A DNA stretch of 60,000 bases, filler included, from Hausera hauseri (Eukaryota): assembly GCA_046269625.1 (NCBI GenBank). It is 13 parts of 13 records of this genome, joined end to end, with 100 filler letters (N's around TTAATTAATTAA, not from the genome) between each part and the next. Parts side by side here need not be neighbours in the genome. Positions count along the whole stretch, not along the records: positions 1 to 4,583 come from JBJURY010518459.1; positions 4,684 to 8,661 come from JBJURY010843635.1; positions 8,762 to 12,888 come from JBJURY010744654.1; positions 12,989 to 18,285 come from JBJURY010286836.1; positions 18,386 to 23,255 come from JBJURY010408922.1; 8 more parts are not named here. One strand, 5' to 3'. This document shows positions 1 to 59,338 of this stretch, piece by piece (the stretch's first letter is position 1; each line of letters opens with the position of its first letter). The position numbers and the translations under genes were made by a program. The notes beneath the pieces were generated by a model. The model was not told where the DNA came from. It searched no databases and saw only the letters and a list, made by a program, of their open reading frames with translations.

Positions 1-394
1 ATACCTTTACTTAATATAGATAATACACCAACCGTATGGATCATCTCGCAAACAAGGAACAATAGCATTGTGTCATATAACTACCACCGAAGAACGACAC
101 AACCTTCATACTAAGCCACAAACAATAGCTATCTAAAACAAAATATTGATAAAGAATAGATTGCCCAATATAACAACAATCCGGGACTTTAGATCATTAC
201 TACTGATTATTATACCCTCTCTTGCCATCAAAATTATATTGATATCAACATTGACTCTGTAGCAAAAGACACTGGCAAATTAGAAAACACACCACCTCAC
301 CAAATACGAACGAGAAATGGTCCGAAACATTATCGGATGATTCTACCATTGAGTATATTAGTTTGCTGTATACCCAACTATAAAATTGTAATTT

Positions 395-2457
395 TTAAAT
401 ACGTTTTTGATTGAATTGTCTTTCGAAATCTTCGTACAAACGTATCGCCAAATTTATCGTCGATTCAGAAATAATTCCCAATTTAGACAGATTCAACTCA
501 TTCTCAGATGTCATTGCACCAACGAAGTTTTGTTTCAACGGGGGTTGTAAAAAATAAATATTCAAAATAATCTGAATTATGTAGCAAGAAAATGGCAAAT
601 TAAAAACAATGAAAAATTCAAATTTAAAATGTATTTATTTTCTACATTTGCAACATTTAAACAACTTTTTTTGAGAGAGTGAAACATATTTCATTTATGC
701 AATTGAAAAAAATGTGAAGTATACAACCGATGAAAATCCGTTTAGCAAAGCGACGAAAATAGAAATCAAATCACTCAGTTCGTTAAACCACATCAATGTT
801 TTCTCGTTAATCGACGTCTGTTCCTTACAAACCAACATATCAAAAGCTATCATTTTTTTGGAATTCTGTGAAAGAGACCTTTGAGTGATTTTATCCATAA
901 AAATTCATTAGAAATACTTCCAGCGCCAAAGGATTTTTTTGGATTAAAAAAATTCAATTTCAATAGTAGTTTTGGCAATTTGTTAATAAGAGGTGGATCA
1001 AATAAGACGATTCAATATCTAGTACTGGGACGAGATTAAGAACATCTGTCTCCAAATCTTGTAAGTACATTTCATCTTGTTCGGCTTGATTATGAAACAA
1101 ATTGATTATGTCCTTTGAAACATTTTCATTGATATCCCTTCAATCATCCTGTCCAATCTGTGTCAGAAGCAATTGCATTTTCACTAGATCAAAATGTAGA
1201 GACCATAGATTAAGTTTATTGAAAATTTTTTTGTCATCACATCGACAATGTCCTTACTAGAACATGACAAACGCCATTGATGCTCTTTGGGGAAACAGAT
1301 ATTTAGCAAGTTGCGAACCTGATTATTTGATATGTTTTTGTCAATCAGCATGTTATCCCGAATGAGCCTATTTGGTATTTCCATGGAAAATTTTATGCAC
1401 ACCCACGGAACACAGCAAATTTCTCGAAGGACTCTCAGAGTCAGATCCCAAATTTCGATTTGGGAAACACTTTCATCAATTTCGATCATATATTCTCGCG
1501 AGCGTTTAGATGAGACGACTGGATTAAATAAACCATCGCTACAATTATCTGCATCTTGAGGCCGACCTTTATCGCTATGTACAGTTAGCATTTTCAAAAT
1601 GTCAACAAAAAATTCTGTCGTAACTTTTGCAAAGAAAACGTTAGTAAATTGACATTTTTCAACTGAAAAGCACTCGTGTTGGACATTACGTTCATGTTGG
1701 ACTCAATCGTGAATAATCGATGTAAAATGAACGTTGCAAGACGCGTGGTTGGAATGCATTTCGGGCTAATGGACGACTGCTCTATAAGTCCCTGTGCCAT
1801 GGCAACGCAAATTACTTTGCTCAGTAGGTCGTTGAATGTGAAACAATGTCTAGCGATCAGAGTGACGATGAGTACAAAAATGTTATCGAATACAAGTAGG
1901 TCATTCGATTGAAGTATAGAATTAAAATCCTTCATAAACGTTGATTACCCAAAAAATGCTTTGAAGAGCATAAGAAGACTAAAGAATCCTGTGATTTATT
2001 TTCCAGGAAGCGTAGACACTTGAAGAACAGTACCAACAATCATGGAGTTATATCGAGCAAGTTGATCAGCATCCTGACAGCGGACGATTGTGAATATGCG
2101 ATTGACGACGAAACTGAAACGGGCGGATGGGTTGCTTTGCAGTTCATCGAGGTACCTATCCAGATAAGCCGAACATCCTTTGACGAAATCACAAGCAAAG
2201 CTCTCACCGAGATACTCAACGGTCGGGCTTCTGGACTTGTCGGGCTCAATCGGCCTGTACAAAATGGACTCAACTTTTACAATCGAACTGAATTTGCCGT
2301 TGGAACAAACGATGAAGCACGATTGGTAAAGATTAAGGTGAGAAGCGAACGTGCACCGGGACGCCGATGGACTGCGGAAACTAACACGGATGTGCATGAA
2401 AAACGTCTGGAATCGGGCATCATCTCTGTATCTGAGGTTTATTTGCGCGAAAATCAG
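395..2457 (-). pseudogene. MED12: Intronless, disrupted internal fragment of Mediator subunit MED12 (probable retrocopy cargo)
   Basis: Consecutive minus-strand ORF pieces SASRCTFASHLNLYQSC, NPSARFSFVVN and LIARHCFTFNDLL...PTTRLATFILHRLF match MED12 segments (SAERCILAYLYDLYTSC, NPANRYSFVCN, LIARQCLLLEDL...PGARLTCRILLHLF). Stops and frameshifts; no evident introns over about 2 kb. Confidence 0.8.
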
Positions 2458-2570
2458 AAATTTTCGAGGTGGAAGATCGGGACCCGCCTATGGGCCCGAT
2501 GTGGCAGCAACAGAGTCCCGCCGTGCCCAACCAAATGGGTCAAAGGGCACCGGTCGCTGTGGGCACCACA
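2458..2570 (-). repeat. Gypsy family A LTR 5' head (about 113 bp) inserted into a Polinton penton gene and joined to MED12
   Basis: Minus strand starts TGTGGTGCCCACAGCGACC and aligns with 9145-9256 and 20447-20559. The TG end abuts mid-penton sequence at 2571. Confidence 0.85.
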
Positions 2571-2955
2571 TAAAGCTTTGGCCATGGTATTGGGTTTTGA
2601 AAAACAGCAGTTTGAGGCATCGACGGATATGAAGACGGAGGCGATACATGTTGCAACACTCAAACCCAAACTGAAAACTGGGCTAAGTCAAATGTACATT
2701 TACGTGAACGTCACCGAACCGATTTCGGTCTGTGGAGTACGTGTACCGCTACTCCGTGCAATTTGTCCGGAAAGCAGCAAGTATATTGCCGGCGACAATG
2801 TCACTGTCAAGCTCTATAATTCTATGTACCTACGGTGGCATCTATATCTATAAACAATGTTGAAGTGAATATCCGATGTGACGCGGGCTACCTTATTGAA
2901 TTTCTGTACGGTATTACAACCAGACTAACCCTTCATTTCTGTCCAATCCAACAAC
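2571..2955 (+). pseudogene. Polinton/adintovirus minor capsid (penton, PX), 3' part only
   Basis: KALAMVLGFEK...QMYIYVNVTEPISVCGVRVPLLRAI...EVNIR...LTLHF. Closely similar to the C-terminal part of 17026-17838. The 5' half is replaced by the LTR insertion. Confidence 0.85.
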
Positions 2956-2964
2956 AACAACAAA

Positions 2965-3330
2965 ATGATTGATTCCGAGATCGTTTCCATTCACAATAAA
3001 CCGCAGCAGGGCGGTAAACTGCCGTATTTCGTTGGTAAACAGTATGGCTCTGAATGGTTGCGTACATTGGCACGTTTAGCATTTCCGGTGTTGAAGCGTA
3101 TTGGAGCCGTGGCCGAAAAAACAGCACAGGACGTACTATATGAAAATAAATCGATTTTACCATCACTGAAGGAACACGCCTTGTCCGAAATAAAAAGCGC
3201 TGCATTGGGAGTCGTTGAATCAGTCAAAAAACAATTCGCTGGCAGTAGCTTAATGACGAGAAAACGCCATAGAACATCATCAAGTTTATCAGCCATAAAC
3301 AAACGTCGTCGTCGTACGATTTTCGATTAA
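2965..3330 (+). CDS. Polinton/adintovirus small basic core-like virion protein
   Basis: Intact 121-aa ORF between penton and major capsid. Has QQGGKLPYFVGKQYG Gly-rich motifs, an amphipathic WLRTLARLAFPVLKRIG segment and a basic tail (RKRHR...KRRRR). Confidence 0.7.
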   Translation: MIDSEIVSIHNKPQQGGKLPYFVGKQYGSEWLRTLARLAFPVLKRIGAVAEKTAQDVLYENKSILPSLKEHALSEIKSAALGVVESVKKQFAGSSLMTRKRHRTSSSLSAINKRRRRTIFD

Positions 3331-3334
3331 TTAA

Positions 3335-4547
3335 TTGATGGCATCTGCGAAATCTGAATTGTGTATATTTGACAAAGCGACGCCACAAGTTGTTATTGAC
3401 GATGCGGCATTTAAAGAAATCTATCCCGTTAATTTGGTTTCAACGGGCAATAACAATGGCATTCAATTCAACATTATGGCATGGGACAATGAATACCTGG
3501 ATTTGAACGATACGCTACTCTATGTAAAAGTCATTGTTAAAAAGGACGTGTCAACGGTTCTCGCTGCAACAGACACTGTCACACCGGTCAATTACTTTTT
3601 CCTCACACTGTTCCAGGAGGCTTCACTGACTCTGAAAAGCGTGAAAATCGAAGGCAACATCAGTCCATACAGTATCAAAGCACTCATTGAAACGGCTCTG
3701 AATTACAGCGCAGACACAAAAACGACTTATTTGGCGAAAACCATCGGATACGATGCCACAACGGCAAACCGTCAGGCATGGGTGGCAGAATCAAAACCGC
3801 TTACAATGTGTGGGCCGCTGTACTTTCACTTTTTCGATCAGCCGAAATGCCTACTATCAGGTGTTAAAGCCATGATTCGGCTCATACGAAGTGACAATGT
3901 CTTTTCTTTGAAAACCAAATCTCAAACCCATACTGAAAATTACCGAGGCACGATTATACGTACGTCGAGTAAAAGTAGATCCATCAGTGCTCATGGAACA
4001 TCGATTGGGCTTAGAAACGAAAAATGCCTGTTACTCGATACAACGCACAGAACTCGTCTTTTCCACCATACCGAAAGGTTCAACTACGTTTTACAAACAT
4101 GCACTGTTTGGCGACATGCGATTGACGAATTTTTTCTCGTTACATTTCAAACGACTGTTCAACAAACGGGCAGTTATACCACCGAATCGGAAACGTTTAC
4201 CCATCAGTTTGGGCAGGAATGTGGATTTCGTCGAGACGTACAAGCAAGACTTTGAGTCTAATGATTACGTTTGCATATATATGCAATCTATTGCGCGCAA
4301 CATGGATTTGCTCAACAAAAACATCAACAATATCATATCAATGGATTTATTCAAATCCAACTATCCATTCTTCACTTTTGTCCTGGCTTCGGATTATGAC
4401 GTTGAGCAGACTCAACTACCTCAGCAGGGAAACCTGCGACTGGAGGATCACTTTGCTAAAGCGTTGGCGCAATCTACCGTGATGTACATTTACGGTGTAT
4501 TTGATGCTGAGGTGGAAATAACGAAAAACGGAACCGTCATTGTATAA
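3335..4547 (+). pseudogene. Polinton/adintovirus double-jelly-roll major capsid protein (PY/hexon), frameshifted
   Basis: N-terminal AKSELCIF...PQVVI...EIYPV and EYLDLNDTLLYVKV; C-terminal QGNLRLE.HFAKAL...YGVFDAEVEITKNGTV. Split over ORFs 3335-4255 and 3987-4547. Confidence 0.88.
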
Positions 4548-4583
4548 ATAAAATCCACTGTCTCACCTTTTCAGCGTCGTCGT

Positions 4584-4683
4584 NNNNNNNNNNNNNNNNN
4601 NNNNNNNNNNNNNNNNNNNNNNNNNNNTTAATTAATTAANNNNNNNNNNNNNNNNNNNNNNNNNNNNNNNNNNNNNNNNNNNN
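4584..4683. other. Artificial contig-joining spacer (first of 12)
   Basis: N-run + TTAATTAATTAA (stops in all six frames) + N-run, 100 bp. Repeated at about 8662, 12889, 18286, 23256, 27808, 31885, 36320, 41254, 45821, 50464 and 55807. Adjacency across spacers is not biological. Confidence 0.98.
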
Positions 4684-7367
4684 GACACCATTACATGTTG
4701 ACTGTCTGAATTGAGCCAAAGTGCTTTTTCAACGAGAGGATTGTATTCACCAAAGGGTCTGAAAGTAATGTAAAGATTGTCATCGTGTTGCGGATAAAAC
4801 TGTGTGACATGATACAGAAAGTTATAGATGGCAAATTTCGGACAGCGCATTATTCTGATACGTCTCAAATTTGGCATAGAATCCGCTGGTGGTGCTGTTC
4901 CCGAATTTATAACAATCGCTTGCAGTTCTGGACAGTTTTCCAGCGTGATACTTTTCAATCTGTGACAAGAGATCAAAACTAAATGTGTGATACCGACCTT
5001 TTCCATATGTAATGTTGTTAAGTGAGCAAATGAATTTTGTTTTAATTCAATTTTATACAACCGTGGTTTGAAATAAAGCCGCAATGAGGTCGTATCTAAA
5101 GATACATCTTGGGCTTCCCACTCCCTGGGACTGTGTTTTACGTTAGATTCGGACTGTGTAAAACTTATGGTGGATGGGTTACCAAAATTATCGATGGGAC
5201 ACGAACACAACTTGCAACCATATTCTGTGATGTTGATTGCTGATATCTTTGTGTTTTTAGAATTTGATGTGTAGCCTGAATTCGATTGGTGTCTAGATGA
5301 CAGATTTGCTTTCTGAAAACACTGTTCATCTGACATTTGAAATATGTCCCTCTGCCACACAGCATCAAGCCAATCAATGTTACCACAAACACAAGTTTGA
5401 GTGGAACTGCTCTGAAAATCACTCAAAACACATTCTTCCAAATTTTGCGAACTGCCGATCCAAGACTGTTCTGAAATTCGACGCTTCTTTACTGATTTAT
5501 CTGACTGCGACGTGTCTTTCTTAGCTATTTTGGATGATTTTGGAGTTGGAAATAAAGACTTGTGAATCAATATTCCATGGTTAAGAAAATTGTTAGTGAT
5601 TTTCTCGTTAGAACGCGAACGTTTTCGTTTTGACGTTCCGATCAACTTAGATACTTCTGAGGATTTCGAGGATTCTTCGTGGACAATGGTAGATGTCTGT
5701 TGATTTGAATCGTCTAAAAGCACCAAATTTCCCAAACCCAAATTTTCCAGTCTATGAACCATACTGATGCTTTTCGTCGCATTAACAATCATTGATGCTC
5801 TTAGGAATTCATTTTGTCTGATAGAAGCACCAAGATTCGTATGCTGGGCTCCTAAAACTTGAGCTCCTGCGGCATTATAGGATGCCAAACCAACCGTACT
5901 CATTCCAAACATTCCGCTATCTGCATTTGGAATTCTGATATCAGTGGTATTTAAACTTGGAATAAATATTCGAGAGAACCGATTTGTTGCTGGATTAGAA
6001 TTATCCATAATATCGCCGACATTTATGGATGTATTCGTCAAATTATTATTAGTGAGATTGAATGAATCGTGTGAATTAATACTTCCAGGAGGTCGAATTG
6101 GGAATATTGGGCAGTTTCTATCACAGAGGCCTTCGATGGTTTGATTTCTGACTGTCATGTTCTGAGTATTCATAGGAAATGTAGTTAGCTTCCCACGAAG
6201 ATTAAAACCATGAAATACATGAAAAGGAATGTTTTGATTACGATTGTTACTCAAGCAATCACTGAAAACAGAACTGTCGATTTCTGCCTGAAGAACATCA
6301 CATTTTGGAAGTGGTAGAAATAAGTCACGAAGTACCAGCATTTCGAGCTGAGGAAATGCAGTGGCAGGATGATTTAAAATGAAAGATATAGTCTCTGGTC
6401 TTATTCCGGGGCAATTTTCAAGGGTCAATGATTTGAGAGGAAATGTGGCGGGTAATTGGTCGTCATTTTCTGAATTATTGTCAAACGGATTTATGGGTTT
6501 ATTCCCAATGGGATATGGCCACTTCCTTGGAGACCACATCATGGGATCTTCGACATAAATAGCATGACGAAGATGAAGTGATATGAGTTTCGGAGCGATT
6601 TTCATCAATGCGGCTACTCCTCTATCTGTTATCTTACAAATAGGTAGACTATGATCTGGCGAGTCATGAAGCCCCAAATTATGAATTTCGACACCAGTAA
6701 GCATTGACTGAAACGGATCTTGATAACCCAAAATGATACTCTCCAATTTCTGCATAGTAACTTTTTGATCAACCATAGATTTTTCAAGGACACATTCATA
6801 CGCCTGTGCCAGCATTAGTAAATTCAGAAATCGCAATAAATCAAATTCCAAATCTGACGAAGGCAACGGTGTGTATTTTTCCAAAATATGTTGAAAAGCC
6901 CAAGCGGAACATTGGAAATGGGTGCAAGCTACTTTCGTACTGTCAAGTTCAATTCTGGTTTCCTTTGATCCCAAATTACAATGTAAACAACCGATATTGA
7001 ACAAAATCGAAGCTTCTTCCAGCCGGACATCATTGCATGATATCGGCGAACCTGATATTGGATCATCCCAAGTCCAAATGACACAATTAACGGAATCATC
7101 GGAATTTAATGGAAATCTTGCTTTCAAAAACTGCAACTGACAGAAGTAACGTTTCAAACTGAGCAACGAATTTAGACTTTCAGTACCAGTGAGACAATTT
7201 TTACGTAAATTGAGAAATTCTTTAAATGCTGTATCATTTACCGCAACTGTATCGTTTACCACAGCTTTACATTGGACTTTCAAATTATATTTCTTTACTG
7301 ACACCATTGTTAAATTTTTGTTATATTGGTTTTGTGGATATAAAATTCTGGAAGATGTACGTGCCAA
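4684..7367 (-). CDS. Uninterrupted chimeric ORF: partial BRO1 domain (PTPN23/HD-PTP-like) fused in frame to the central and C-terminal part of an FBXO38-like protein; 3' end runs into the gap
   Basis: aa ~47-203 LKRYFCQLQFLKARFP...EEASILFNIG...VACTHFQCSAWAF...LMLAQAYECVLEKS is BRO1-like. From MQKLESIILGY onward, IHNLGL...ITDRGVAAL...LTLENC and VGITHLVLISC...YITFRP resemble FBXO38. About 895 codons with no stop or intron. Confidence 0.8.
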
Positions 7368-7385
7368 AATGTAGGTATTGTCGAG

Positions 7386-7489
7386 TTATAGAGAATGATA
7401 AAAATCCGATTATTACGGTAATAAAATTCCAACAGAATTATAGAGAATGATAAAAATCCAATTATTACGGTAATAATATTCCAACAGAA
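7386..7489. repeat. Tandem duplication of a 52-bp unit
   Basis: TTATAGAGAATGATAAAAATCCRATTATTACGGTAATAAWATTCCAACAGAA twice, just upstream of the chimeric ORF. Confidence 0.9.
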
Positions 7490-7744
7490 AAAAAAACGTC
7501 TTTATGATATGAAATGTAAAAATCTAATTGATAAAGATCAATATTTATTTATTATCAGTAACCATTTATTCTAAACTCTGTACAATATTTAAACAACATT
7601 TTTTTTAATTGATCATTGCCAAATTAACACAACAAAATATAAAAAATATTTTCATCAGTCTACTGATCAAAAATTCTGCGTAGTTCTCGATGGTTGACAT
7701 AGGAGAATATTGGAATCACAATTTATTTCGTCGATATAAAGTCG

Positions 7745-8390
7745 TTATTGGGGATAGATTTGTTTGGACAGGTGTTGAGAATTGAGAAAAACTGTCAAAT
7801 TTAGATTCTTCAATTGCGTTATCTGGGTGACTGAATTGTCTAGAGGATTATTTGTACGATCGTGTTCGTCATTTGGCTGCGGCAATTTGTCAGTCAAAAC
7901 CGGTATATCAATTGAATTTCTTTTATCGTCGCTTTGCGTTTCCTCCATTATTTCGACGGGATTGCCAATGAACGTACCTCATGTACTTTCTGTTATTGGA
8001 TGAATATTAACTGTCGAAAGATTCAAAAATTCGTTCGTACAACTCGGTATTCGATTGATATTTTTCTTTTGATGGAACATCATCTGTAGTACTGATAAAA
8101 TAAACTGGGGAGATTTTAGGTGAAGAAATCAATTGTTAGATCGTTTTCAATAACAAGAACTCTTGGTAATAACTTTTAACTGCATCGATTTCGGCTTTCA
8201 TCTTTTTTTATTTTTTTAATCGATCTGAATTGCGCAGTTCTTGATAAGCTTTGTTCCATTTATTGATCAGAAACATTGTCATTGGAGATTTTGGGAATTT
8301 TGAATTAGATAGTATGAATTGCCATAGAACATTAGGAATTTTGAAACAGATTGTTGTATTGTTTTTCTTGAAAAGTTGGCTCTTCTACCT
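7745..8390 (-). pseudogene. Unidentified degenerate host-like coding fragment directly following an LTR head
   Basis: Broken minus-strand reading frames, including ORF 7745-7948. No family recognised. Confidence 0.35.
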
Positions 8391-8661
8391 GAATCCGCGG
8401 CACCACACTACCCCCCGTTACGGAAATGACACTTTATTAGAGAAAAGAAAGTTAGTAGACAGAGTAGTGGGGTGTAGAAGAACTTGACAGAAGCAAATTT
8501 TGATGTGATTGAAACAGAAACGTGGAAAGAATACGTTTTGTGAGCTATTGCATCTTAGTATGGACAAGGCGTTGAATTCTGTCGACATTCTGTTCTCTGC
8601 TGTATTTGCTAAAGGTAACAGTCTTACTCTTCTTACTGTGTTGTTTAATTACTTGTTGAGT
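8391..8661 (-). mobile_element. Gypsy family C 3' region: PPT plus 17-bp LTR head
   Basis: Aligns with 59322-59590. Minus strand reads ACGGGGGGTAG (PPT) then TGTGGTGCCGCGGATTC, then unrelated sequence. Confidence 0.8.
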
Positions 8662-9144
8662 NNNNNNNNNNNNNNNNNNNNNNNNNNNNNNNNNNNNNNN
8701 NNNNNTTAATTAATTAANNNNNNNNNNNNNNNNNNNNNNNNNNNNNNNNNNNNNNNNNNNNATATTTTCCGAATAGCTGCTTCATAATTAAATTGACATA
8801 TTTTGGATATTGAATCACCAGTCAATTTGTAATTTCTTTGGCATGATTTATGAAAGCGTTCATTCCAATTACTTCTTCTAGCGCCCTTTGCATCACTGAA
8901 AATTGAAATAAATTGCTCGTTGTTAGACTGAGTATATGGCAGGATGAAAACGGAGCAGACGCCTTCAAAATATTCGTGATAGATTGCATACTATTGGTCC
9001 TTTTACTGACTGCATTGTTTGCACTTAGTGAATTGCTAGATCGAACAGCAATAGCCAGTTTACCGAAAGGGTTAATATCGGTGGCTATTGGGGTAATTGA
9101 ATTAACAATATACTCGGTAATCCTCTCGTCTAATTCGACGGATT

Positions 9145-9256
9145 ATATTCTTAAAGCGGGAGTCGGACCCGACTAACGATCCGACGCGGCGATATAGGAC
9201 GCCCGGTCGTGTCCAATCAAACGGGCCAAAGGACACCGGCCGCGGTGGGCACCACA
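9145..9256 (-). repeat. Gypsy family A 3' LTR head (about 112 bp), followed by unrelated host-like sequence (8762-9144)
   Basis: Minus strand: end of integrase ORF (9335), CGGGGATGA purine tract, then TGTGGTGCCCACCGCGGCC. Homologous to 2458-2570 and 20447-20559. Confidence 0.85.
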
Positions 9257-12200
9257 TCATCCCCGTGGCAAAGTGAAAACTATAAAGATCAAAATAGACG
9301 GAAAGAAAAAATCGCTAAACCAAAAGTGTCTGTGTCAACTGGTCTTAGTGTGAACAAGACGTTGGGTGCCTTCTACTAATTTGTCCCTGCTATACATGCT
9401 AAATGTAACTGCGTGTTTTGTTTGTATGCGATGTGTTTGCTTGTGGAGTATGGAGTTTGGGAAAAAATTGTCAGATTTTGTTGTGGGTGTTGTGTCGTGC
9501 AAAGACGAGTCAGGATGAAGCGAAGAAGAATGTGAAGGAGGAAGAGAGATTGGTGGAGACGGATGGTTAAAGGTATTTAAGAGAGTGTTAGAAGACAAAG
9601 GACTGACAAGAGGTGTAGTAGTGGATGAAGGAGAGACAGAAGTTGGAGTAGAAAGTGGAATTGTATTGGGCGAAAGAGTAGAAGTAGAAAATGAAACAGA
9701 AGGATTGGTAGAGACAGGAAGAGTGGTAGGGGTAGAAGGTGTGGAAAATGATGAAGCGGAACTAGGAACAGAAAGAGAAGGTGGAACAGGTGTAGCAACA
9801 GATATAGGAATATCAGGGAGTGTAGGAGTAAGAAAAGAGGTTGACGTGTCGATTGGTGAAATGTCGTCGACAAAGAAGGCGGGCTTCAAGTTTGTGATAT
9901 GCACCGTAAGTTCTTTGTCATCTTTAGAAATAATAGCGTTATGTGAATGCAGCTGTATCAGTTTATAGGGCCCAGATACCGCGGCTGAAAACCGCACGGC
10001 GTCTGATTTTTTAGCCATACGAATTTTGCCGAATACAAATCTTCGGGTAAATATGTTTTGTTTTTATGAAGTAACGTGCAAAACGAATATTTGCTGACCG
10101 TAACAAAGTGACTTTGTGCCGCCCGTATCATTTCGCCTGTAGGAGTGTCGTCTAGGGCAGTTACTTCGAATAGTGATCGTATAGGAGCTCCGAATAAGGC
10201 TTCAGTAGGTGAGCAGACGTAGTGTTCCGCCAGCTGAGCAGAACAAACGGAAGAAGATTTGTCCAACTAATGTTGGACTCTGCAAGAATTCTTAGTGACG
10301 TTTTCTATGTGCGGTGGAAGCGTTCTACAAGGCCATTCGATTGGGGGCGATAAGGCATAGTATGTATGTGTTGGATCCCTAAACGGTTAATGAGGGATTT
10401 GAACAGGTTGGATTCAAACTGTGAACCCTGGTCCGTGATGATTAAGCGAGGTGATCCAAACTTGCTAATCCATGTACGAATGAAAACATCAACTATGGTA
10501 TCGGTGTTCGTGCTCCACAGAGGGATGGCTTCTGGCCATCGCGAGGAACGGTCCATCATGGTGATGATGAATTGATGACCGTTGTTTGGAGGAAGAGAGC
10601 CAACGATGTCGATATGCACGGATTCGAAACGCGATGTGCAGGGGAAGTGGAACAGTGGTGGCTTTAGATGCTTAGTTGTTTTGTATTTTTGGCAAGCCAC
10701 GCACTCCTTAACCCATGCGTGCACATCAGAACGCATTGACGGCCAAATTACTTGTCGGTGGAGTAAACGAAAGATGGCTTTAGCACCAGGCTGATGTAGC
10801 GAATAAACACTGTTGAATGCTTGCCTTTGCAATGATGGTGCAATAATTATTACGAATGACATAGTTTGGAAGTGTCTAAAGCCACGCCGTCAAGGATTGT
10901 GCAAGACTTGAAAGAATTAAGCTTGTCCTGAGGTGGCTGGTTCTGTTGAAGTTGAGCTTGCGTAAAAATCGGTGAGAAATTAATCGAACTAACCGACCTA
11001 GATAAAAAGTCGGCAACCAAATTATTAACTCCGTTAATATGTTTTATGTCGAAGTTAAATATCGTCAATTATGATATCTGTCGTTCTTGGCGTGTGGAAG
11101 GATGTTTCATAGCCATGATGTTAAGTAAGGGTTTGTGATCGGTCTGTATGGTAAAATAGCGAGCGATAAGTAGGCGGGAGAAATGCTTTAAAGCGAGAAC
11201 GATGGCCAATAATTCTTGATCGAACGTTGAATATCTAGTTTCAGGGGTTGTTAGCTTACGAGAAAAAAATTCTGGTGGTTGATTTTCTCCTTTATAGATT
11301 TGGTGAAGCACAGCACCTACCGCAGTAGTTGAAGCGTCTCTGGTAAGGATAAGTTCCGTGTCAGGCTTGGGGAAAGCGTAAATGTCGACGGTCTTAATTC
11401 CTTCACGTAGCTTATCACGCTTATCAACCAATTCAAATGTCCACTGAATTGGCTGATGTTTTTTGACGCCGCTTTAGTGTGCAAATGGCGCTGTCAGTTC
11501 GGAACAATATGGTATATATTTATGTACAAAGTGTAGTGTACCAAGGAAGCTGCGCATTTCAGTGGTCGTATGTGGTAACTGGATATTCTTAAAAGCTTCA
11601 ACTCGGTCTGGTTTGGGAGTGGCCTGTGAAAATCTGTCATTTTGCCTCGGTCATGCCTTGACAATTTGATTGCGATTCAGCAACATTAAAAGGATAATTA
11701 AAATTCTATTTCACTTAAAATTTTACAATGATAGTAAATATGAATATTTAAACAAAACGAAATGACTATATAATTTTGTGTGCTATTGGGTGAATGTGGG
11801 CGCCACATGGCCGTCTGGTGAAATAACGTGGCCCAAAAAGTTGATGCGCTTTTTAAAGAAATGGAGTTTGTCAAAATTGACTCGGAGATTATGGTGTTTA
11901 AGGCGTTGGAATAGCGCGCCGAGGTGTTCATCGTATTGTTTGGCTGAAGACGAAACGACCAGAATATCATCAATGTAAGGGTGTGCAAACGGGAAATCTG
12001 ATAGAATTGATTCAGTATGTCGCTGAAAAGTTTGCGCGGCATTTCGCAAACCCAATGACAAACACATATTCGTAGAGACCAAAAGGAGTAGTGACAGCAG
12101 TCTTTTCTATGTCGTCGGGTGCCACCGGTATTTGGTGATATGCTTTGGCCAAATCGATGCTCGAGCAAATTGCGGTTAAATTAAGGCGATACAAGATATC

Positions 12201-12888
12201 TTTAATGAGTTGCAGGGGGTACGCATCCGTAATAGTCAAGTTGTTCAACTGTTGGTAATCACCACATGGTCTGAAAGTTCCGTCCTTTTTTGTACAACAT
12301 GTAAAGCCGACGACCAAGGAGATTTGAAACGGCGAACAATGCCGGAGCGTTTTAGTTCTAGAAATTCGGCTTACACGGCCTGCCTATGACGAGATGACAG
12401 TAGTCGTACCTTTTGGCGTATTGGTCGTTGATGTTGAGTAACTATGTGGTATAAAGTACTGTTTGCAGGAGTCAACGTACGATCTTTTTTAATTACGCGT
12501 AGACAAGATGTGTTGAGGAATTGCTGCAAAGTTGTAGGCAACTGTGGGAGATTCGATGATGATGGTGAAACAGCTTGAGTAGTAGCGGATGCAATTTGTG
12601 AATTATTTGCTGATGTAAAGTCAATTGGTGTTTGGTGCAAGATAGTCGATTTAAAAATGGTGTTGGATGAAGTGATTTCGTCAAGCGAATTAACGTTGGT
12701 GACAATACCACAATTGGCGACATCGAACCTCGATTGAATATCAGTATTATTATTTAAAAATTTACGAAATGAAATATTACGGAAATTTGAATTAGTTTTT
12801 GGTTTCCTCAGTGTTAGAGTTGAGATATGGGACGAAACGCGGAGTCTGTCTAATACCATTTATTTCCAAGTCATGTTGTACATGAAAA
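9257..12888 (-). mobile_element. Ty3/Gypsy retrotransposon family A, degenerate pol (RT-RNase H-integrase with Ser/Thr/Pro-rich tail)
   Basis: RT motifs RPCGDY, DLAKAYHQIP, KTAVTTPFG and YIDDILV. RNase H motifs DASTTAVGAVL and FFSRKL...ELLAI. Integrase motifs HQPG...CVAC, HIDIVG, DQGSQF and NGLVERFHRT. Domain order is RT-RH-IN. Confidence 0.95.
11625..11807 (-). mobile_element. 183-bp TG...CA insertion with 5-bp target-site duplication inside the Gypsy RT
   Basis: TGGCC at 11620-11624 and 11808-11812. Minus strand starts TGTGGCGCCCACATTC and ends TTTTCACA, with an AT-rich interior. RT sequence (ISPDG / PKPDRVEAF) resumes on both sides. Confidence 0.85.
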
Positions 12889-12988
12889 NNNNNNNNNNNN
12901 NNNNNNNNNNNNNNNNNNNNNNNNNNNNNNNNTTAATTAATTAANNNNNNNNNNNNNNNNNNNNNNNNNNNNNNNNNNNNNNNNNNNN

Positions 12989-13131
12989 GGTGATACGCCA
13001 TTACATTTGGCAGTTCTAAAATCTGAAAGTAAATCAGTCCGATGTCTGTTAAATGCTAATGCCGATATTACTAAATTAAACAATAAACAGTTCAACTCTT
13101 ATCATTTGGCAGCATTGAGAGGCAATGAAAG
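12989..13131 (+). CDS. Exon of an ankyrin-repeat gene, Mind bomb-like
   Basis: GDTPLHLAVLKSESKSVRCLLNANADITKLNNKQFNSYHLAALRGNE, followed by a GTAATT donor. Resembles MIB1 GDTPLH...[23 protein letters not shown]. Confidence 0.7.
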
Positions 13132-13465
13132 GTAATTTTTGAATCATATTAAATTGACATCTGTATGTAGGTATTTAATTTATACCTGTAAAATAATTTA
13201 ACAAAACAAAGATCTGTATTTTAAATAGTAAAACAGTAGTTATAAATATTTTTGTACATTGTGAAGATATTAAAAACAATGTTCTGCATGTTTGTTCATG
13301 GCCTTTGTCATGTTAACATATTAATTTCCCTGAAACATCTGCTTTCGTTTTGATGACAATTCTTAATGGAATAACAGTTGATATAATAAACCTTTGATTA
13401 TGAAAATATTTGGAATTGAAAGTAAATAACTAGACATTCTAGACTTTTAGTCCCGTATTCATACG

Positions 13466-14863
13466 TAGAAGAGTGCTGGGTTCTCCTAAATTTTATAAGC
13501 CCAATGTGCGACCGCGGAGTCTGAGAATTTGGCTACTACATATTGGTCCATTTCATCGAGATGAATTGAATGATGCCTGATTGTTTGGATCTTGATACTT
13601 TCGACGAGAAAGATGGTAATTAGGGACCTCGACGAAATCACGCTTTACGTCTGTGCTAGATACACTTCTCTGATTGGTCAGAAAACCAGTTTTCCCCACC
13701 TGATTAGCTATTCTGAACATTTCATTAAAAATTTCGGATGACCCCCCCTCCCGACCGAAAAGGAGATCGGGCAATGGACTTTGGACCAGGTGATATCGAT
13801 AGCTCGTGACGAGGTGAGCAAAAGTTAATAAAGGTGGGTTATTCGAAAAATGTAATGGATAGGCGCTAGAAGAAGCAAAACAGGAAATGCTCCACGTGTA
13901 AGACGAAGCATGTAGCTAGCACTGAGAAAATGTGTACAAGGGGTAAATCGATATTGGCGATTGCAATGGACACTATTGCAAGTCGGTCAGACCATGGGAA
14001 CATAGGGAAAAATCGATGGGAAATTTTTAAAGGGGTAAAATTTCCCCATGTTCAAGTCTGCCGGTGATGGCAATTGGTACAATACTTTGCTCATAAGCTG
14101 GGAGAAATTTCATATTATATCCACCTCACAATCACACCAATGGTTTGGGGTAAAAAATTCAATCGAACGAACGAACTCATTGTTAAAAGTCAAAATTATC
14201 ATTATCGAAATGTAGAAGTGTTCTCTCCATCCCCGATCCCAAAAAGTGCTGAGATGGACCTGAAACCTAGTTTTCCCTACCTATCTCACAATATTGCGCA
14301 TTTCATGTTTTGTGGTCGGAGACCCCCTAGCAGGAAGCACATGTCATATGTCGCACATGTCACCGATGGAAATCGGTAGAGCTCGATAATTAGAGAAAAA
14401 TTTTATAGCGCGGCGAGAGTCCAAAATTTTACTAGGCGACGCTAGAAGCAAAAGAAGCAAAACAGGAAATATTTTATGAGAAACAAGACACGAGTTACGA
14501 ATTGCGCAGTATTTGGTGCAAATGCTAAATCAATGTCGGGGAATCGAATACGCACAATTTCAACGTTGTCTGACCATGGGAACATGGGGAAAAATTGACG
14601 GGAAATTTTCAAACTGTAAAAATTTTCCATTGTTCAAGTCTGGTGGCTGTGGAAATGGGTTGAGCACGTAGCCCATCAATAGTTGAGCATTTCATATTAT
14701 AGCCGCCTCACGATCAGATCAATGGATCAGGGTGCAAAATGTGCAACCGGACGAACGAAAACCCGCATTGTTAAAAAGTAAAAATCATCATCATCGTTCG
14801 TTCGATTTTTAAAAAGTGTGAATTTTATTTTGTATGACGAACTTATAATCCAGTACTACTACT
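13466..14863. repeat. Non-coding block with two diverged tandem units of about 570 bp and a Polinton-type terminus
   Basis: 13860-14210 and 14435-14800 share GCTAGAAG..AAGCAAAACAGGAAAT, GACCATGGGAACAT, GTTCAAGTCTG and ACGAACGAA..CATTGTTAAAA. The block ends ...AGTACTACTACT at 14863 (Polinton ends are AGT/ACT repeats). Confidence 0.5.
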
Positions 14864-14949
14864 CAAAAGGAGAATGATTGTCACATTATTATTTCTCAAG
14901 ATATGTTCGTTCTTTGGTACACAAAACAACAGCAATAAAATAATACACG

Positions 14950-15310
14950 TCACAAAAGTGATTGTAATGCAAGCCACAATAAGCAATAAGGTCCAAACAG
15001 TTTAGTCATTCGATGTTGACAATGAACTCGATTATATTCAACACAGTAGAATGATTGCTGTTCAATTTGAGAAACCAATGATGACGGATAGTAAAATCCG
15101 AGCGGATCGAATACTCTGACGACGTTGGTCGGATGGTGGACGTACACTGAAATCCTGTTCGCCCGGCAACAACGAAGTGCGTTTAGTGATAATAAAACCA
15201 CCAGTTTGTCGTAAATCACGCGGCACACAGTTCAGTGGAAAAACGCCACGAAATTTCACGCCCAAGAGCGGTTTTCATACTGACTGAGCTCGGTGGAGCT
15301 AAATGTGAAT
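14950..15310 (-). pseudogene. Polinton adenain-like cysteine protease, disrupted
   Basis: FRGVFP, LPG, VFDPLG and Q....KLFGPYCL pieces in shifting frames (consensus CG.YC; the catalytic Cys reads Phe). Lies directly downstream of the major capsid gene. Confidence 0.75.
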
Positions 15311-15391
15311 TAAGTATAATAGTAACCGTAATAAATTACTTAATAATAGAACGACGACGAAGAAGAAAAGGTGAAACACAGCGGATTTTAT

Positions 15392-16628
15392 TTATACAAT
15401 GACAGTTCCGTTTTTCGTTATTTCAACCTCGGCATCAAATACACCGTAAATGTACATCACGGTAGATTGATCCAACGCTTTAGCAAAGTGAACTTCGAGT
15501 CGTAGGTTTCCCTGCTGAGGTATCTGCGTCTGCCCAATGTCATAGTCCGGAGCCAGAACAAAGGTAAAGAACGAGTAGGTGGACTTGAACAAATCCATCG
15601 ATACGCCATTGTTGACATTTTTGTTCAGCAAACCCATGTTGCGCAAGATAGATTGCATATATGTGCAAACAAAATCATTAGACTCAAAGTCTTGTTTGTA
15701 CCACTCCACGAAATCTTCATTCCGGCTCAAACTGATATAATTCACATTGATATGTGTAAATGTTTCCGAATCAGCAGTTTAACTGCCCGTTTGTTAAACA
15801 GTCGTTTGAAATGTAACGAGCACAAATTTCAGCAATCGCATATCGCCAAACAGAACGTCCTTGTAAAACGTTGTCGAACTTTTGGGTATGGTATAAAACA
15901 CGAGTTCTGTGCATTGTATCGGGTACCAGGCATTTTGTGTTTCCAAGCCCAATCGATGTCCCATGAGCACAGATTGTGCTACGTTTACTCAACGTACGTA
16001 TAATCGTGCCTCGGTAATTTTCAGTATGGGTTTGGGATTTTCCATGGCGGTTTTCTAACAAAAGACATTGTCGCTTCATTTGAGCCGAATCATGGCTTTA
16101 AAACGGGGCAGTAGGTATTTCGGCTGATCGAAAAAGTCAAAGTACAGCGGTCCACACAGTGTAAGCGACTTTCATTCTGCCACCCATGCCTGACGGTTTG
16201 CAGCTGTGGCACCGTATCCAATGGTTTTCGTCAAATGAGTCGTTTTCGTGTCTGCGCTGTAATTCAGAGCCGTTTCAATGAGTGTTTTCATACTGTATAG
16301 ACTGGTGCTGTCTTTAATTTTCACACTGTTCAGAGTCAGTAATGTCTCCTGGAACAGTGTGCGGAAAAATTAATTGGCCTGTGTGACAGTGTCTGTTGCA
16401 GCGAGAACCGTTAACGAATCCTTTTTAACAATGACTTTTGCATAGAGTAGCGTATCGTTGAAATCCAGGTATTCATTGTCCGATGCCATACTGTTGAATT
16501 GAATGTTGATGTGATCGTCCGTTGAAACCGAATCAACGGGGTAGATTTTCTCAAATGCCGCAATTGTCAATAACAACTTGTGGCGCCGCTTTGTCAAATA
16601 TGCACAAATCAGATTTTGCAGATGCCAT
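15392..16628 (-). pseudogene. Polinton/adintovirus major capsid protein, second copy, disrupted
   Basis: Collinear with 3335-4547 (MASAKSD...EYLDFNDTLLYAKV...QGNLRLEVHFAKAL...ITKNGTVIV), with different lesions. Confidence 0.88.
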
Positions 16629-16651
16629 TTGACTGTCTGTCAATCAATCAA

Positions 16652-17018
16652 TCAATCGCAAATCGTACGACGACGACGTTTGTTTATTGCTCATGAGCTC
16701 GATGATGCTCTACGGCGTTTTCTCATCTTCAAGTCACTGCCAGAAATTTGTTTTTTGACCGATTCAACGACTTCCCGTGCAGCGCTTTTTATTTTGGACA
16801 AGGCATGTTCCTTCAATGATGGCAAAAATCGATTTGTTTTCATATAGTACGGCCTGTGCCGTTTTTGCTGCTACGGCACCGATACGCTTCAACATCAGAA
16901 ATGCTAAGCGTGCCAATGTACACAACCATCCAGAGGCATACTGTGTACCAACGAAATACGGCAGTTCGCAGCCCTGCTGGGGTTTACTGTAAATGGAAAC
17001 GATTTCAGAATCAATCAT
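16652..17018 (-). pseudogene. Polinton small basic core-like protein, second copy, frameshifted
   Basis: MIDSEIVSIYSKPQQG..LPYFVGTQY; paralogous to 2965-3330. Confidence 0.75.
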
Positions 17019-17025
17019 ATTGTTG

Positions 17026-18110
17026 TTATTGGATTCGACGGAAATGAAGCGTTAGACTGGTTGTGGTACCGTACGGAAATCCAATAAGGTAGCCCGCATC
17101 ATATCGGATATTCACTTCAACATTGTTTGTAGATGTAGATGCCACGGGTAGGTACATTGGATTATCGAGCTTGACAGTTACATTTTCGCCGGCAGCATAC
17201 TTGCTGCTTTCCGGATAAATTGCTCGGAGTAGCGGTACGCGTACTCCACCGACCAAAATCGGTTCGGTGACGTTCATGTAAATGTACATTTGACTTAGTT
17301 CCGTTTTCAGTTTGGGTTTGAGTGTTGCAACATTTGCCACCGCCGCCCCTGTCTTCGTATATGGTGTCTCAAACCGCTGTTTTTCAAAACCCAATACCAT
17401 GGCCAAAGCTTTGTCCAATGAAATGTCGACAATATCCTTAACTAGTTCAAATTTAACGTACCCATCTGCATCTGACTCGAAAACTTTAAATATCGCCTTG
17501 TACTTTTTATTTGAAGAAGAAAAGTGTTGACAGAGCTGTGCTACAGATTCACAATAGACATTGTCTCCAGTCGATAGATATAACGTTGACCCCCTTCCTC
17601 TTGTATAGGTAAATTTCACCGTTGTCTGGTAATATACGGGTGTTAATCTTGGAGCAACTATATTTTTACTTTTAATAAAATTGCCTTTGTACTCTATATT
17701 TGTGAATCCAAATTTTTGCGCCATCTCAGTGGACTCAAATGCAACAGTAAATTCAAAATTTGCCATAAAACTAAGTTTTCCCATGAAATATAAACACCGA
17801 TTTTGCCGTGTGAACCGGAACCTGTTTCGGTCGTGCAAATGGCCGATTCTCCAACAGTTGTTTTATTGTTAGTAAGTGTCAGAGGATAAGAATGTGCTTT
17901 GGTTTCAGTAACAGGCTTGTTGTACGTTATTTTCATACTACCTTTCAATGAAACCGGTGTGTAGGAAAAGTTAAATTCCGTCACTGCAACCTCCCACTTT
18001 CCAGCAGATAAATCCAACGGATTGTTCCGATCTACAACGTTTCAACTAGCGAAATTGCTCGGACGAGTCGTCGGACAACTGTTGCTCGGCAACACTACGT
18101 AAACACTCAT
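17026..18110 (-). pseudogene. Polinton/adintovirus minor capsid (penton, PX), full length, disrupted
   Basis: Starts MSVYVVLPSNSCP...LDLSAGKWEVAVTEF (LPSN and G.WEV motifs); ends MYIYMNVTEPILVGGVRVPLLRAI...TSLTLHFRRIQ. Confidence 0.88.
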
Positions 18111-18825
18111 TATCTCAATGATGATGATGATGATCGTGATGACGCAGTTTGTTTATTATCGACGTTGACGACGTCGAAAATGTAATGTGAAATGTGTCGT
18201 TGACCCGAACAGAAATTTAATGGGTTCCCATAATTCATCATGCATATACACGGAAATACTGTGCACAATATTATGAGACAGTGATNNNNNNNNNNNNNNN
18301 NNNNNNNNNNNNNNNNNNNNNNNNNNNNNTTAATTAATTAANNNNNNNNNNNNNNNNNNNNNNNNNNNNNNNNNNNNNNNNNNNNGATTTGTATATAAAA
18401 AATTTTATTAAGGCAGGTGTTTAAATATTGGTATGCAGAAGCGGTGTAAAAAATTTGAATTTGAATAAAAGTTATGAACGTTTTATGTTGGTAACAAACC
18501 TATTTTGTGTATAAAAAGTTTTCTTTGCTGTGTAATTATGTTGCTTTATTCTAATCACTTAATGAGTTACAATGGTGTTAGTTTACAAGCTGGAATTGTG
18601 AATGATATTATATTGAATGCTTTAATAATGGGAGTTGGTAATTCGAACAATTCATCGACAACATTAGATCCAAAGTCTGCGAAACATCTTGGAAAATTGA
18701 CAGTTAATTCTTCACCAAACGACCAGTCTGTTCCTTATGACTATACATCATTGCGAACTCCCGTGCCATCGATTTGTTCAACTGATCTTGATGATGTGCC
18801 GTGCACCAGAAATTTATCCGGTGGA

Positions 18826-20446
18826 GGAAACAAAAATTTTTACAGTTGTGTTGTGCAAAGCAGTTCAGAATGAAGAGAAGAAGAAAGTGAAGGAGGGATA
18901 GAGATTGTTGGAGACGGACGGTTGAAGGTATTCAAGAAAGTGTTAAAAGACAAAAAACTGACAAATGATGTAGTGGTGGATGAAAGAGGAGAGACGAAAA
19001 TTGGAGTAGAAATTGAAATTGTATTAGGTGAAAGAGTAGAAGTAGAAAATGAAACAGAGGTAGTGGTAGAGATAGGAAGAGAGACAGGAATAAAAGAAAG
19101 TGTGGAAAATGATGAAGCAGAACTAGAAGCAGAAGTAGGAGGTTGAATAAGTGTAGCAACAGATATAGGAGCAGCAGGAAGTGTAGAAGTGAGAAAAGAG
19201 GTCGACGTGTCGATTGATGAAGTGTCATCGACAAAAGGCGGGCTTTAATTAGTAATATGCACTGTAAGTTCTTTGCCGCCTTTAGAAATAATAGCGTTGT
19301 GCGAATGCAGCTGTACCAATTTATAGGGCCCCAGATACCGCGGTTGGAAACCGCACGGCGTTTGATTTTTCAGCCATACGAATTTTGCCGAATAATAGTC
19401 TTCGGGTAAATATGTTTTGTCATTGTGAAGTAACCTGCACAATAAATCTTTGCTGACCGTAACGAAGTGACTTTGCGCCGCCCGTATTGTTTCATCTGTA
19501 GGAGTGTCGTCTAGGGCAGTTAGTTTGAATAAGGATCTTACAGGAGTTCCGAATAAGGCTTCAGTAGGTGAGCATCCTGTAGAGGTAGGCTGAGTGTTCC
19601 GCCAGCCAAGCAGAACAAACGGAAGAAGATTCGTCCCACTAGTGTTGGACTCTGCAAGAATTCTTAGTGGCGTTTTCAATATTCGATTAAAACGTTCTAA
19701 AAGGCCATTCGATTGGGATGATAAGGCGTAGTATGTATGTGGTGGATCCCCAATTGGATAATAAAGGATTTGAACAGGTTTGATTCAAACTGTGGACCCT
19801 GGTCCGTGGTGATTAAGCGAGGTGATCCAAATCTGCTAATCCATGTACGGATGAAAACGTTAGATATGGTGTCGGTATTTATGCTCCGCAGAAGGATGGC
19901 TTCTGGCCATCTCGAGGAACGGTCCATCATGGTGAGAATAAATTGATGACTGTTGTCGGGAGGAAGAGGGCCAACGATGTCAATATGCACGGATTTGAAA
20001 CGCGATGTGCAGGGAAAGTGAAAGAGTGGTGGCTTTAAATGCTTAGTTGTTTTGTATCTTTGGCAAGCCGCACACTCCTTAACCTATTCCTGCACTTCGT
20101 AACGCATTGACGGCCAAATTATTTGTCGGTGGAGTAAAGGAAAGTGACTTTAGCATCAGGGTGGTGTAGTAAATGTACACTGTTGAATGCTTGCCTTTGC
20201 AAAGGTGGTGCAAAAATTATTACGGAATGACCTGGTTTAAAAGTGTTTAAAGTCACGTCGTCAATAATTGTGAAAGACTTGAAAGAATTAAGCACGTCCT
20301 GAGGTTGCTGGTTCTGTTGAAGTTGAGCTTGCGTAAAAAGCGGTGAAAAATTAATCGAACTAACCGACTTATATAAAAAATCGGCAACCAAATTATTAAC
20401 CCCATTTATATGTCTTATATCGAAGTTAAATATAGACAAACATGAT
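18826..20446 (-). mobile_element. Gypsy family A second copy: RNase H end plus integrase, truncated
   Basis: Collinear with 9460-11070 (HIDIVGPLP, DQGPQF, GFQPRYLGPYK, S/T/P-rich tail). Confidence 0.92.
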
Positions 20447-20559
20447 TGTGGTGCCCACAACGGCCAGTGCCCTTTGGCCCATTTGGTTGGACACGGCCGA
20501 GCGTCAGTTGCCGCCGCGTCGGGCCTATACTCGGGCCCGATCATCCGACTCGAGGATTC
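20447..20559 (+). repeat. Gypsy family A LTR 5' head (113 bp) inserted antisense into a family A pol
   Basis: TGTGGTGCCCACAACGGCC...CCGACTCGAGGATTC. The TG end abuts mid-pol sequence at 20446. Confidence 0.87.
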
Positions 20560-21830
20560 AAGCAGCGTAATGAAATCAATCAATGGACGACTTGCAACAA
20601 TAACACATACACCAACGAATATCAAACCAGATCCAGGACAATTATGTCAAAAGATGAAAATATTAAGTGTTCTGAACCCCTCCTTAAATCAGAGATGCAT
20701 CAAACCAAATTTCTCCTGTCAACAAAATTCGGAATATAGAATTTTATTTGAAACCACGAAGTTTGAAGTGTCGATTTCACAAGTCAGTCTTCAAATTTTA
20801 ATAGTTGTTTTACAATATACATATATATTCATACTGTTACTGTAAAATATTTATCACTTAATTACTGGCAATATTTCTATCAGTAAATCGATGTCTGATC
20901 ATTTCGACTTATTCAAGGATAAATTTCAAAAGATCCGATTTTTATTACCATTAGCTTATTTAACCGATGTTTTATCCGAAATTCAATCGTTCTTTGCCAG
21001 AAATATTTTTAATGAAGCGAAGACTAGAAGAACATTATTGAATATGTTTTATGGCTATAATCAAAGAAATACGGTTATAAATGTATTGGTTTTAATAGCA
21101 GATTTGGTAATATCAAAATCGAGTTTTTTTATTTTGGTTTATGTTTCATATGGTTTAGGAATCCAATGTTGGTGCAGCTTGTATGGAACTGTTTAATAAT
21201 GTAAAGAATCTAAAATTTTACGATGTAAATTTTATTGGTCTTTTAGGAAAATTACGAAATTTTCAAAGGATTCAATTATCGACAAAATTTGTCCTATTTT
21301 GACGATATTTGGAACTCAATTGAGGCAATTGATTATGAAAACTTTGAGTCACCGAATGTGGAGAGATTAAATTCGTTTGGCAATTCTTTGGAATATCAAA
21401 CCGACTCGAAAATGTTTGGTGCCAATCTGGAGTCGAAGGATACTATTGTTGATAATATAAATCCAAATTATTTAATTCAACTCAATGACTCAAAGAATCA
21501 ATCTTTGGAAAAATCACGGCTTTGAAGCCACAGTGACGCGGGACTTAGAGTAATAAAAGCGGACACCATTGTCGAAGATGTCGGTAGCAAAACTAATTTG
21601 CCTTCATCACACTCCGGATCTTGATCACCGAGCAGTGGCTTATCTCGTCATTCTATAGTTCAGATCAGGGAGAATTATGAAAAAGAAAAGTGTGATACAC
21701 CAATGGATGCTAAACAAAGAAAAGGGAAGTCGTCTGTAAAATTAGAATTTGCTAAAGAAATATCCGATGCTGAAACCAAGCAAAAAACGGAAGCAATATC
21801 GCCGGAGGAATTGCGAGCAAGCAGGCTATA
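20560..21830 (+). pseudogene. Unidentified degenerate host-like coding fragments following the LTR head
   Basis: Series of short plus-strand ORFs (20474-20845 part, 20891-21196, 21289-21525) on the same strand as the LTR head. No family recognised. Confidence 0.35.
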
Positions 21831-48700: not shown

Positions 48701-48749
48701 TACATTAATATATCCCAAGGATACAAATATCTCAGAATGGGTAGTACAA

Positions 48750-59308: not shown

Positions 59309-59338
59309 TGTGGTGACGCCAGAATCCGCGGCACCACA
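59309..59338 (-). repeat. 30-bp mini-LTR with 7-bp terminal inverted repeats
   Basis: Minus strand TGTGGTGCCGCGGATTCTGGCGTCACCACA, directly after the purine tract ACGGGGGCAG. Confidence 0.78.

Follow-up and report, generated by a model that had tools for sequence, protein, structure and literature searches.

This report concerns Ty3/Gypsy-type retrotransposons in a 60,000-nucleotide stretch of DNA (the window) from Hausera hauseri (GCA_046269625.1), which consists of 13 contigs of ~4–5 kb with N-linkers between them, and in particular the host gene pieces that lie directly behind the starts of their long terminal repeats (LTRs). An earlier reading by a model, made without database searches (the sequence-only reading), had placed three GC-rich LTR starts on three contigs. 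All three, here called heads A, B and C of family 1 (Table 1), were confirmed. They share 71–80% pairwise identity and have a GC content of 61–65%, and the sequences that follow them, here called cargo, are unrelated to one another (46–47% identity over the next 200 bp, compared with 47–49% for shuffles). A second family is represented by head D and the closed copy E. The MED12 piece behind head A finds its closest named matches among flatworm proteins, and the host is therefore probably a flatworm.

Copy B carries the protease–reverse transcriptase (RT)–RNase H–integrase order of Ty3/Gypsy elements, followed by a purine tract and an LTR that starts with TG. Its integrase stop is followed by an 81-bp gap, the purine tract and head B, which bears out the earlier identification of this head as the start of a 3′ LTR. 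Head A interrupts a Polinton-like gene and head C a pol gene of its own family in the opposite orientation; both are thus LTR starts at insertion sites. The target of head A presumably belongs to a Polinton, a label chosen from the look of its protein. A second copy of this target (17412–15354) runs on past the cut point, and neither the target of head A nor that of head C resumes inside its own contig.

Ten public sequencing runs, all compared as contigs and not as reads, cover part of one contig of the window, at least half of it in two of them: X1 (0.86) and X2 (0.55), the latter coming from another study and carrying another organism label. A comparison of window positions 1–2600 with X1 at 80% likeness gave 1681 contigs. 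At the start of the head, 136 X1 contigs leave into unrelated flank (agreement 0.37) and 55 into the purine tract; the LTR thus begins with this head at either end of the element. A further 100 contigs continue alike (~0.8) at 2520/2521 and are a diverged subfamily of the head. At 2462, position +109 of the head, 21 contigs leave at one and the same base, with an agreement of 0.47. In a simulation for 21 ends, unrelated continuations gave an agreement of 0.39, 5–6 shared continuations 0.45–0.48 and 11 shared continuations 0.65; the simulation assumes an unweighted 30-letter majority, and the formula behind the observed agreement is not stated. The observed value fits a common continuation in ~5–6 of the 21 contigs. 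Set against the simulated values, it means that a shared ordinary LTR, which the sequence-only reading had said would speak against it, is not seen behind the head in these 21 contigs. The common stop point that had been claimed for the three window copies stands in part. It is sharp at +109 in the run contigs, on which the joint rests, whereas among heads A, B and C alone the likeness merely fades, from 6–10 of 10 columns over +1..50 to 4–6 over +51..100 and 3 over +101..110.

Summed depth does not equal copy number, and the shape of its curve alone was used. Over the contig of copy B, the X1 summed depth is 6924 at 9176–9313 (head and purine tract) versus 27–59 at 8762–9037 (cargo B). In copy A, the depth is 355 at 2446 (16 X1 and three X2 contigs, not all of which are shown to span the joint between head and MED12), 145–205 over 2263–2436 and 20–122 over 697–2262, and head-side cargo is therefore commoner than the far part. 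The joint itself is crossed by X2 contigs 14 and 15 (spans 2309–2492 and 2405–2568); it is present in a second study, which makes an assembly artefact unlikely. Because the MED12 start is enriched beside the joint and the same joint recurs in the two X2 contigs, the cargo appears to be inherited, and these two observations contradict the claim of the sequence-only reading that every copy is joined to a different host sequence. The same contig also holds a second repeat at 1–435, with a summed depth of 211–1088, where 25 X1 contigs diverge beyond 374; it had no match among the element proteins compared, and no tail was seen.

The MED12 coding sequence reported behind head A is indeed there, as a decayed but uninterrupted internal piece. 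A search of 1.84 billion proteins with a read-through of the cargo A frame gave 16 relatives (best E 2e-52), and each of the six that were scanned is a MED12 protein. The alignment to amino acids 875–1301 of the best relative covers 1285 nt; it contains stops and frameshifts and leaves no room for an intron. The homology spans 2412–915 and begins 50 bp past the joint, leaving 2413–2461 outside it. Of the unrelated, same-strand and host-like frames that had been described behind heads B and C, the long sense frames are present (Table 1) and names are not, since Pfam and Atlas searches gave no usable name for cargo B, C or D. Frame lengths were judged against 1000 shuffles, and head identity was likewise judged against shuffles; the antisense frames at the joints of B and C were equalled in 58 and 993 of the 1000 shuffles, respectively.

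Named decayed housekeeping pieces stand beside members of this clade in four of the 13 contigs, and all six of these pieces (four loci) lie in element sense. They are partial, uninterrupted and, in the twelfth contig, stacked; amino acids 98–728 of MTR4, for example, align without room for an intron. Among these named pieces, intron-containing or randomly oriented flank, another outcome that the sequence-only reading had held against itself, was not seen. Cargo follows the purine tract and head directly in B and D, and the stack of host pieces precedes gag in the twelfth contig; behind a 3′-LTR head and before gag are the two positions of an LTR. At 12989–13130 (+), an ankyrin-repeat exon ends at an apparent GT splice donor, which suggests that ordinary host genes here have introns. 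A very diverged C-terminal piece of tubulin was observed at 37091–37717 (+), in a contig with no element head. At 55907–56500, where the MTR4 piece ends, it is joined to GC-richer DNA unlike the rest, which possibly comes from another animal or is the chimeric end of a contig.

The 17-bp head D of family 2, which had also been noted from the sequence, was confirmed by its second copy in E (59338–59309). Within the region behind D, the open 900-codon frame (4686–7385, (−)) combines the first ~200 amino acids (two-thirds) of the BRO1 domain of PTPN23 with an unrelated, weakly leucine-rich-repeat-like protein and is a candidate chimeric gene. It is preceded by a 52-bp tandem duplication at 7383–7486.

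Table 1. Heads, cargo and associated element features, with positions along the whole window.
Feature	Position	Strand	Description
Cargo A	915..2461	(−)	Internal MED12 piece; frame broken by stops and frameshifts, no gap of intron size
Head A	2462..2570	(−)	GC-rich LTR start (61%), family 1, at insertion site; loose ends at 2570, 2571 and 2462
Polinton-like target	2571..4583	(+)	Interrupted by head A, outside the element; 85% to 17412–15354
Region behind D	4686..8390	(−)	1 kb without named match, then open 900-codon frame
Head D	8391..8407	(−)	17-bp start of 3′ LTR, family 2, after purine tract 8408–8419
Cargo B	8762..9144	(−)	106-codon sense frame from the joint; 7/1000 shuffles as long; low depth
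Head B	9145..9256	(−)	Start of 3′ LTR, family 1
Purine tract	9257..9264	(−)	Before head B; read from the sequence
Decayed Gypsy pol of copy B	9338..12888	(−)	Protease region, RT, RNase H, integrase, Pro/Ser/Thr tail; Pfam and tblastn
Closed solo LTR	11625..11807	(−)	Third related family; 183 bp, AT-rich, in copy B pol; perfect 5-bp target duplication
RNase H/integrase target	18845..20446	(−)	Same family, interrupted by head C; no resumption in that contig
Head C	20447..20559	(+)	LTR start at insertion site within same-family pol, family 1
Cargo C	20560..21830	(+)	Run of sense frames of 94, 116, 92 codons and more; 10/1000 shuffles
Host-piece stack before gag	51383..54152	(+)	Vigilin, CLEC16A-like (E 4e-6), MEIOB-like (E 5e-7)
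Decayed gag	55073..55806	(+)	Same clade; CHCC-type motif in tandem, H replaced in the first copy, second copy truncated at contig end
Decayed MTR4 piece	56531..58433	(−)	Uninterrupted; 875 bp behind E, same sense
Copy E	59309..59338	(−)	Closed 30-bp unit after purine tract: 17-bp head of D and 13-bp tail, 7-bp terminal inverted repeat; family 2

In standard reverse transcription, as set out in the available part of PMC3187697, U3 derives from the 3′ end of the RNA, and R and U5 from its 5′ end by way of strong-stop complementary DNA (cDNA). Cargo is located behind 3′-LTR heads (B and D), behind heads at insertion sites (A and C) and before gag (contig 12), and these locations correspond to the R/U5 position. 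On balance, we favour the explanation that host messenger RNA (mRNA) was captured in the R/U5 part of the LTR at the first strand transfer, and that it was subsequently inherited and stacked. Strong-stop cDNA, extending from the primer site through U5 and old cargo, would hop onto a co-packaged host mRNA. Re-entry into old cargo would lead to stacking with the head-side cargo kept, which fits the depth gradient of copy A, while a return to the element RNA at position +109 would install a new first cargo, in line with the 21 contigs. That +109 is fixed could potentially be explained in two ways, between which we are about evenly divided: the RNA may have its 3′ end there, 13 nt past a conserved hairpin and with no polyadenylation signal in the head, leaving R nearly nil, or +109 may be the border between U3 and R, with only copies that have the whole head multiplying. 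A more far-reaching version can be proposed tentatively and is rather doubtful as a whole. It holds that this Gypsy lineage has lost terminal redundancy, that the RNA ends at a fixed base past the structured head, that the first transfer is free of homology, and that the LTR serves as a routine cloning site where pieces of host mRNA are copied, stacked and multiplied genome-wide, an empty 30-bp LTR being left if nothing is caught. The open head joined to unrelated sequences is a real, family-wide feature and probably a variant of LTR-mediated gene capture; cargo follows three of the three family-1 heads of the window and is present in many run contigs.

The head itself was characterized further. 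It has neither AATAAA/ATTAAA nor the TATA-like motif of the sister LTRs described below. Hairpins at +15..53 and +72..96 can be drawn for all three heads in common and include three two-sided changes, and the folding of single heads is unexceptional (z −0.9 to −1.5). No Rfam family was found at gathering level in the window, nor was any tRNA, and head patterns had no match in viral or prokaryote collections. A retrozyme or other ribozyme-ended LTR was rejected, as there was no match to a self-cleaving ribozyme and the best E-values for heads A and C, 0.64 and 0.66, were to microRNA models. No spliced leader was seen at the joints, where no tool-based search for one was made.

Several observations weigh against capture within the LTR. 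None of the cargo-bearing copies in the window is closed, and the 13-bp tail of family 2 occurs there exactly once (in E), its 10 matches at ≤3 mismatches being at chance level. MTR4 sits behind the closed LTR of E, so sense host pieces are also found outside a head-to-tail unit, and the longer frame directly behind E is antisense (91 codons; 7/1000 shuffles). No long frame begins at the joint of head D (285/1000 shuffles). The primer site of the sisters is not found beyond chance in the window, and none precedes the gag of contig 12. Flatworm exons can be long, which weakens the argument from intron loss that cargo was captured as the predicted mRNA, and no intron of the parent gene over cargo A is visible among the rows listed for the run contigs. 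Covariation of the hairpins over the three head copies was not significant (75/500 shuffles). X1 is possibly the same sample as the window DNA, and scattered minor breakpoints are possible because the loose ends listed are 12 of 284 rows, with six of them from X1.

The position of the cargo could also arise by ordinary internal capture, in which the ~110-bp head is a whole decayed LTR and the units behind it are non-autonomous, with host pieces in place of their interior and in some cases an LTR in common with the preceding element. Such an arrangement matches the layout with multi-gene chimeras, re-amplification and a fixed switch site in the accessible text of PMC5131818, and complex elements that share LTRs through template switching are described in the part of PMC1950507 that was available. 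Very short LTRs exist here as well, given that family 2 can form one of 30 bp. Heads A–D, however, lack the CA/inverted-repeat end that E, the 183-bp solo LTR and most sisters have. They are also followed by no primer site, which a working unit needs after its 5′ LTR, and both cargo-bearing 3′ LTRs (B and D) would need to be shared-LTR tandems, all of which leads us to regard internal capture as unlikely. Rearrangement at the DNA level is quite unlikely. The heads would then be truncated or recombined LTR remnants amid decayed gene copies and their neighbours would be flank, as might be expected from the different DNA on the two sides of A and C, where no duplication was found, and from MTR4 behind the closed E and the decayed tubulin elsewhere, which are gene debris away from open heads. 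It is difficult to reconcile with 21 contigs leaving at one base, with a joint that recurs in two runs and with six of six named pieces in sense orientation, for which the chance is 1 in 16 for four loci.

The strictest form of capture, with an RNA that has no R, a new host RNA in every cycle and a cargo peculiar to each copy, appears improbable. The four open heads of the window do have different neighbours, the 21 contigs differ at +109, and the motifs missing from the head are in keeping with it. It is contradicted by the enriched MED12 start and the X2 contigs across that joint, by the agreement value, which fits one continuation shared among ~5–6 of the 21 contigs, and by the empty closed E, which shows that capture is dispensable in family 2. 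Assembly chimeras at a high-copy repeat are highly improbable. Short-read contigs of 4–5 kb, one of them with an end (55907–56500) unlike the rest, and the failure to find the window's own allele in X1 at some places would be compatible with them, but two X2 contigs span the MED12 joint and an assembler would not favour sense coding DNA. Capture at the first strand transfer followed by inheritance and stacking remains the explanation that we prefer.

The closest pol proteins are ENA records at 71%, and the closest proteins (P0121, P0122 and P0205) are encoded on ENA contigs of 5–9 kb. Together with P0245, these are intact or near-intact relatives at 71–74%. In an integrase tree of 43 rows, which includes no named CsRn1 member, copies B and C group with P0121/P0122 (support 100/99), and the next group, of metagenome contigs, is not firmly supported (91/81). 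None of the 79 metagenome loci, which were taken from the best 80 of 470 matches, was closer than 48% to P0122 in its best segment. The integrase and P0122 queries had no match in viral or prokaryote collections. Six sister LTRs, from that next group of metagenome contigs, begin, after a purine tract, with the same 7-bp start or a variant of 1–2 bases, and they are closed, with 362–685 bp to a shared primer site. Their first 110 bp contain 12–20% GC, with an AT-rich start and a TATA-like motif. The primer site comprises 12 bases other than those of tRNA-Trp and is presumably of the tRNA-Leu type. The solo LTR within the pol of copy B has a start like that of the family-1 head (11/12), the TATA-like motif of the sisters and an X1 summed depth of 929, and other copies of this pol in run contigs skip it. 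It is the only one of nine TG...ACA units with 5-bp duplications in the window to have a near-exact head and outside support. Since both the sisters and this solo LTR are closed, AT-rich and ordinary, the GC-rich, unclosed head of family 1 is likely a derived state.

The best matches of the gag in contig 12 are the sister Gags, and it is linked to the head families only through these shared nearest relatives. The CX2HX9CX3C (CHCC) Gag motif is complete and doubled in the sisters. The sister elements L002, L003/L009, L004, L006, L007 and L016 are assembled as circles. A variable reading frame begins in the sister LTR ahead of the primer site, and no host gene was identified in the variable frames. 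A ubiquitin-like domain that ends in RGG, KGG or QGG precedes the sister Gag in six of six cases (Pfam ubiquitin, E 2.5e-24 for L009), and cleavage at this domain would free Gag from an N-terminal fusion. Such a domain was suspected by eye before the gag of contig 12 and was not detected with a six-sequence profile.

In non-homologous minus-strand transfer of retroviruses, the R sequence may be of non-viral origin, and LTR junctions can take up cellular RNA. Cell-derived LTR inserts in retroviruses are rare laboratory events, in contrast to the family-wide state observed here. Among retrotransposons, the nearest parallel is the LTR-mediated retroposition of metazoans (Tan et al., 2016; PMC5131818), for which the accessible text likewise describes fusions between LTR elements and partial copies of mRNAs, chimeras of several genes and re-amplification. 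In our data, partial and uninterrupted host coding sequence is fused to an element, multi-gene chimeras are present in the contig-12 stack and the BRO1 chimera, and the recurring MED12 joint is a case of re-amplification. The same text presents the process as rare, with mRNA replacing internal open reading frames between intact LTRs in all 15 cases, and reports for the Gypsy element BLASTOPIA one fixed switch-back site in five retrocopies, which the sequence-only reading overlooked in stating that junctions are generally variable. As far as this source extends, both LTR-mediated capture and a fixed switch site are already published, and the new part would be the proposed placement inside the LTR. 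Unlike the cases of Tan et al. as given there, the host piece here lies directly behind the LTR start, at either end of the element: the cargo of B and D follows a purine tract and an unclosed 3′-LTR head, and that of A and C an unclosed head without a primer site. According to the portions available (PMC13317346; PMC1950507), foreign sequence also entered the LTRs of plant BARE-2 and Veju by a switch between co-packaged RNAs, as single events with another retrotransposon or an unknown sequence, compared with repeated host mRNA at a fixed point here. We found no report of family-wide host mRNA inside an LTR in the open literature, most subscription papers being outside this coverage.

The element resembles the CsRn1 clade of Ty3/Gypsy in its Gag motif and is, on sequence grounds, a candidate relative only. 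The accessible parts of PMC2582038 and PMC3601003 describe, for CsRn1, PwRn1 and AgCR, a similar pol order, a CHCC-type Gag motif and flatworm hosts, together with LTRs of ~330–380 bp, a primer site for tRNA-Trp and a duplication of 4 bp. Unlike that clade as described there, the nearest sisters have another primer site, a doubled CHCC motif and a ubiquitin-like domain ahead of Gag, and the duplication flanking the related solo LTR is 5 bp long.

The window contains further, separate elements. Decayed Polinton-like pieces were observed at 2571–4583, 15354–18100, 24200–27480 and 42500–44750, and include a capsid-region block that occurs twice, at 85%, and the remnants of two B-family polymerases (Pfam DNA_pol_B_2 for 43754–44434). 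Broken envelope-like genes at 31338–31883 and 48531–50255 (+) match the Monjiviricetes fusion glycoprotein family, and each ends a long decayed polyprotein-like stretch. An unrelated Gypsy family, recognized by its integrase, is present at 23356–24013, 31985–33621 and 41355–41470, where an LTR-like stretch recurs in three copies.

What defines an LTR element is its pair of matching repeats, regenerated through R homology. If host mRNA does fill an LTR behind a head of 17–110 bp, these elements would test how little homology the first strand transfer can work with. The mechanism is open to direct testing, given the fixed joint and the closely related ordinary LTRs, one of which lies in this very genome. 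LTR finders and gene annotation would overlook or misinterpret such elements, which would give rise to gene fragments and exon shuffling on a large scale.

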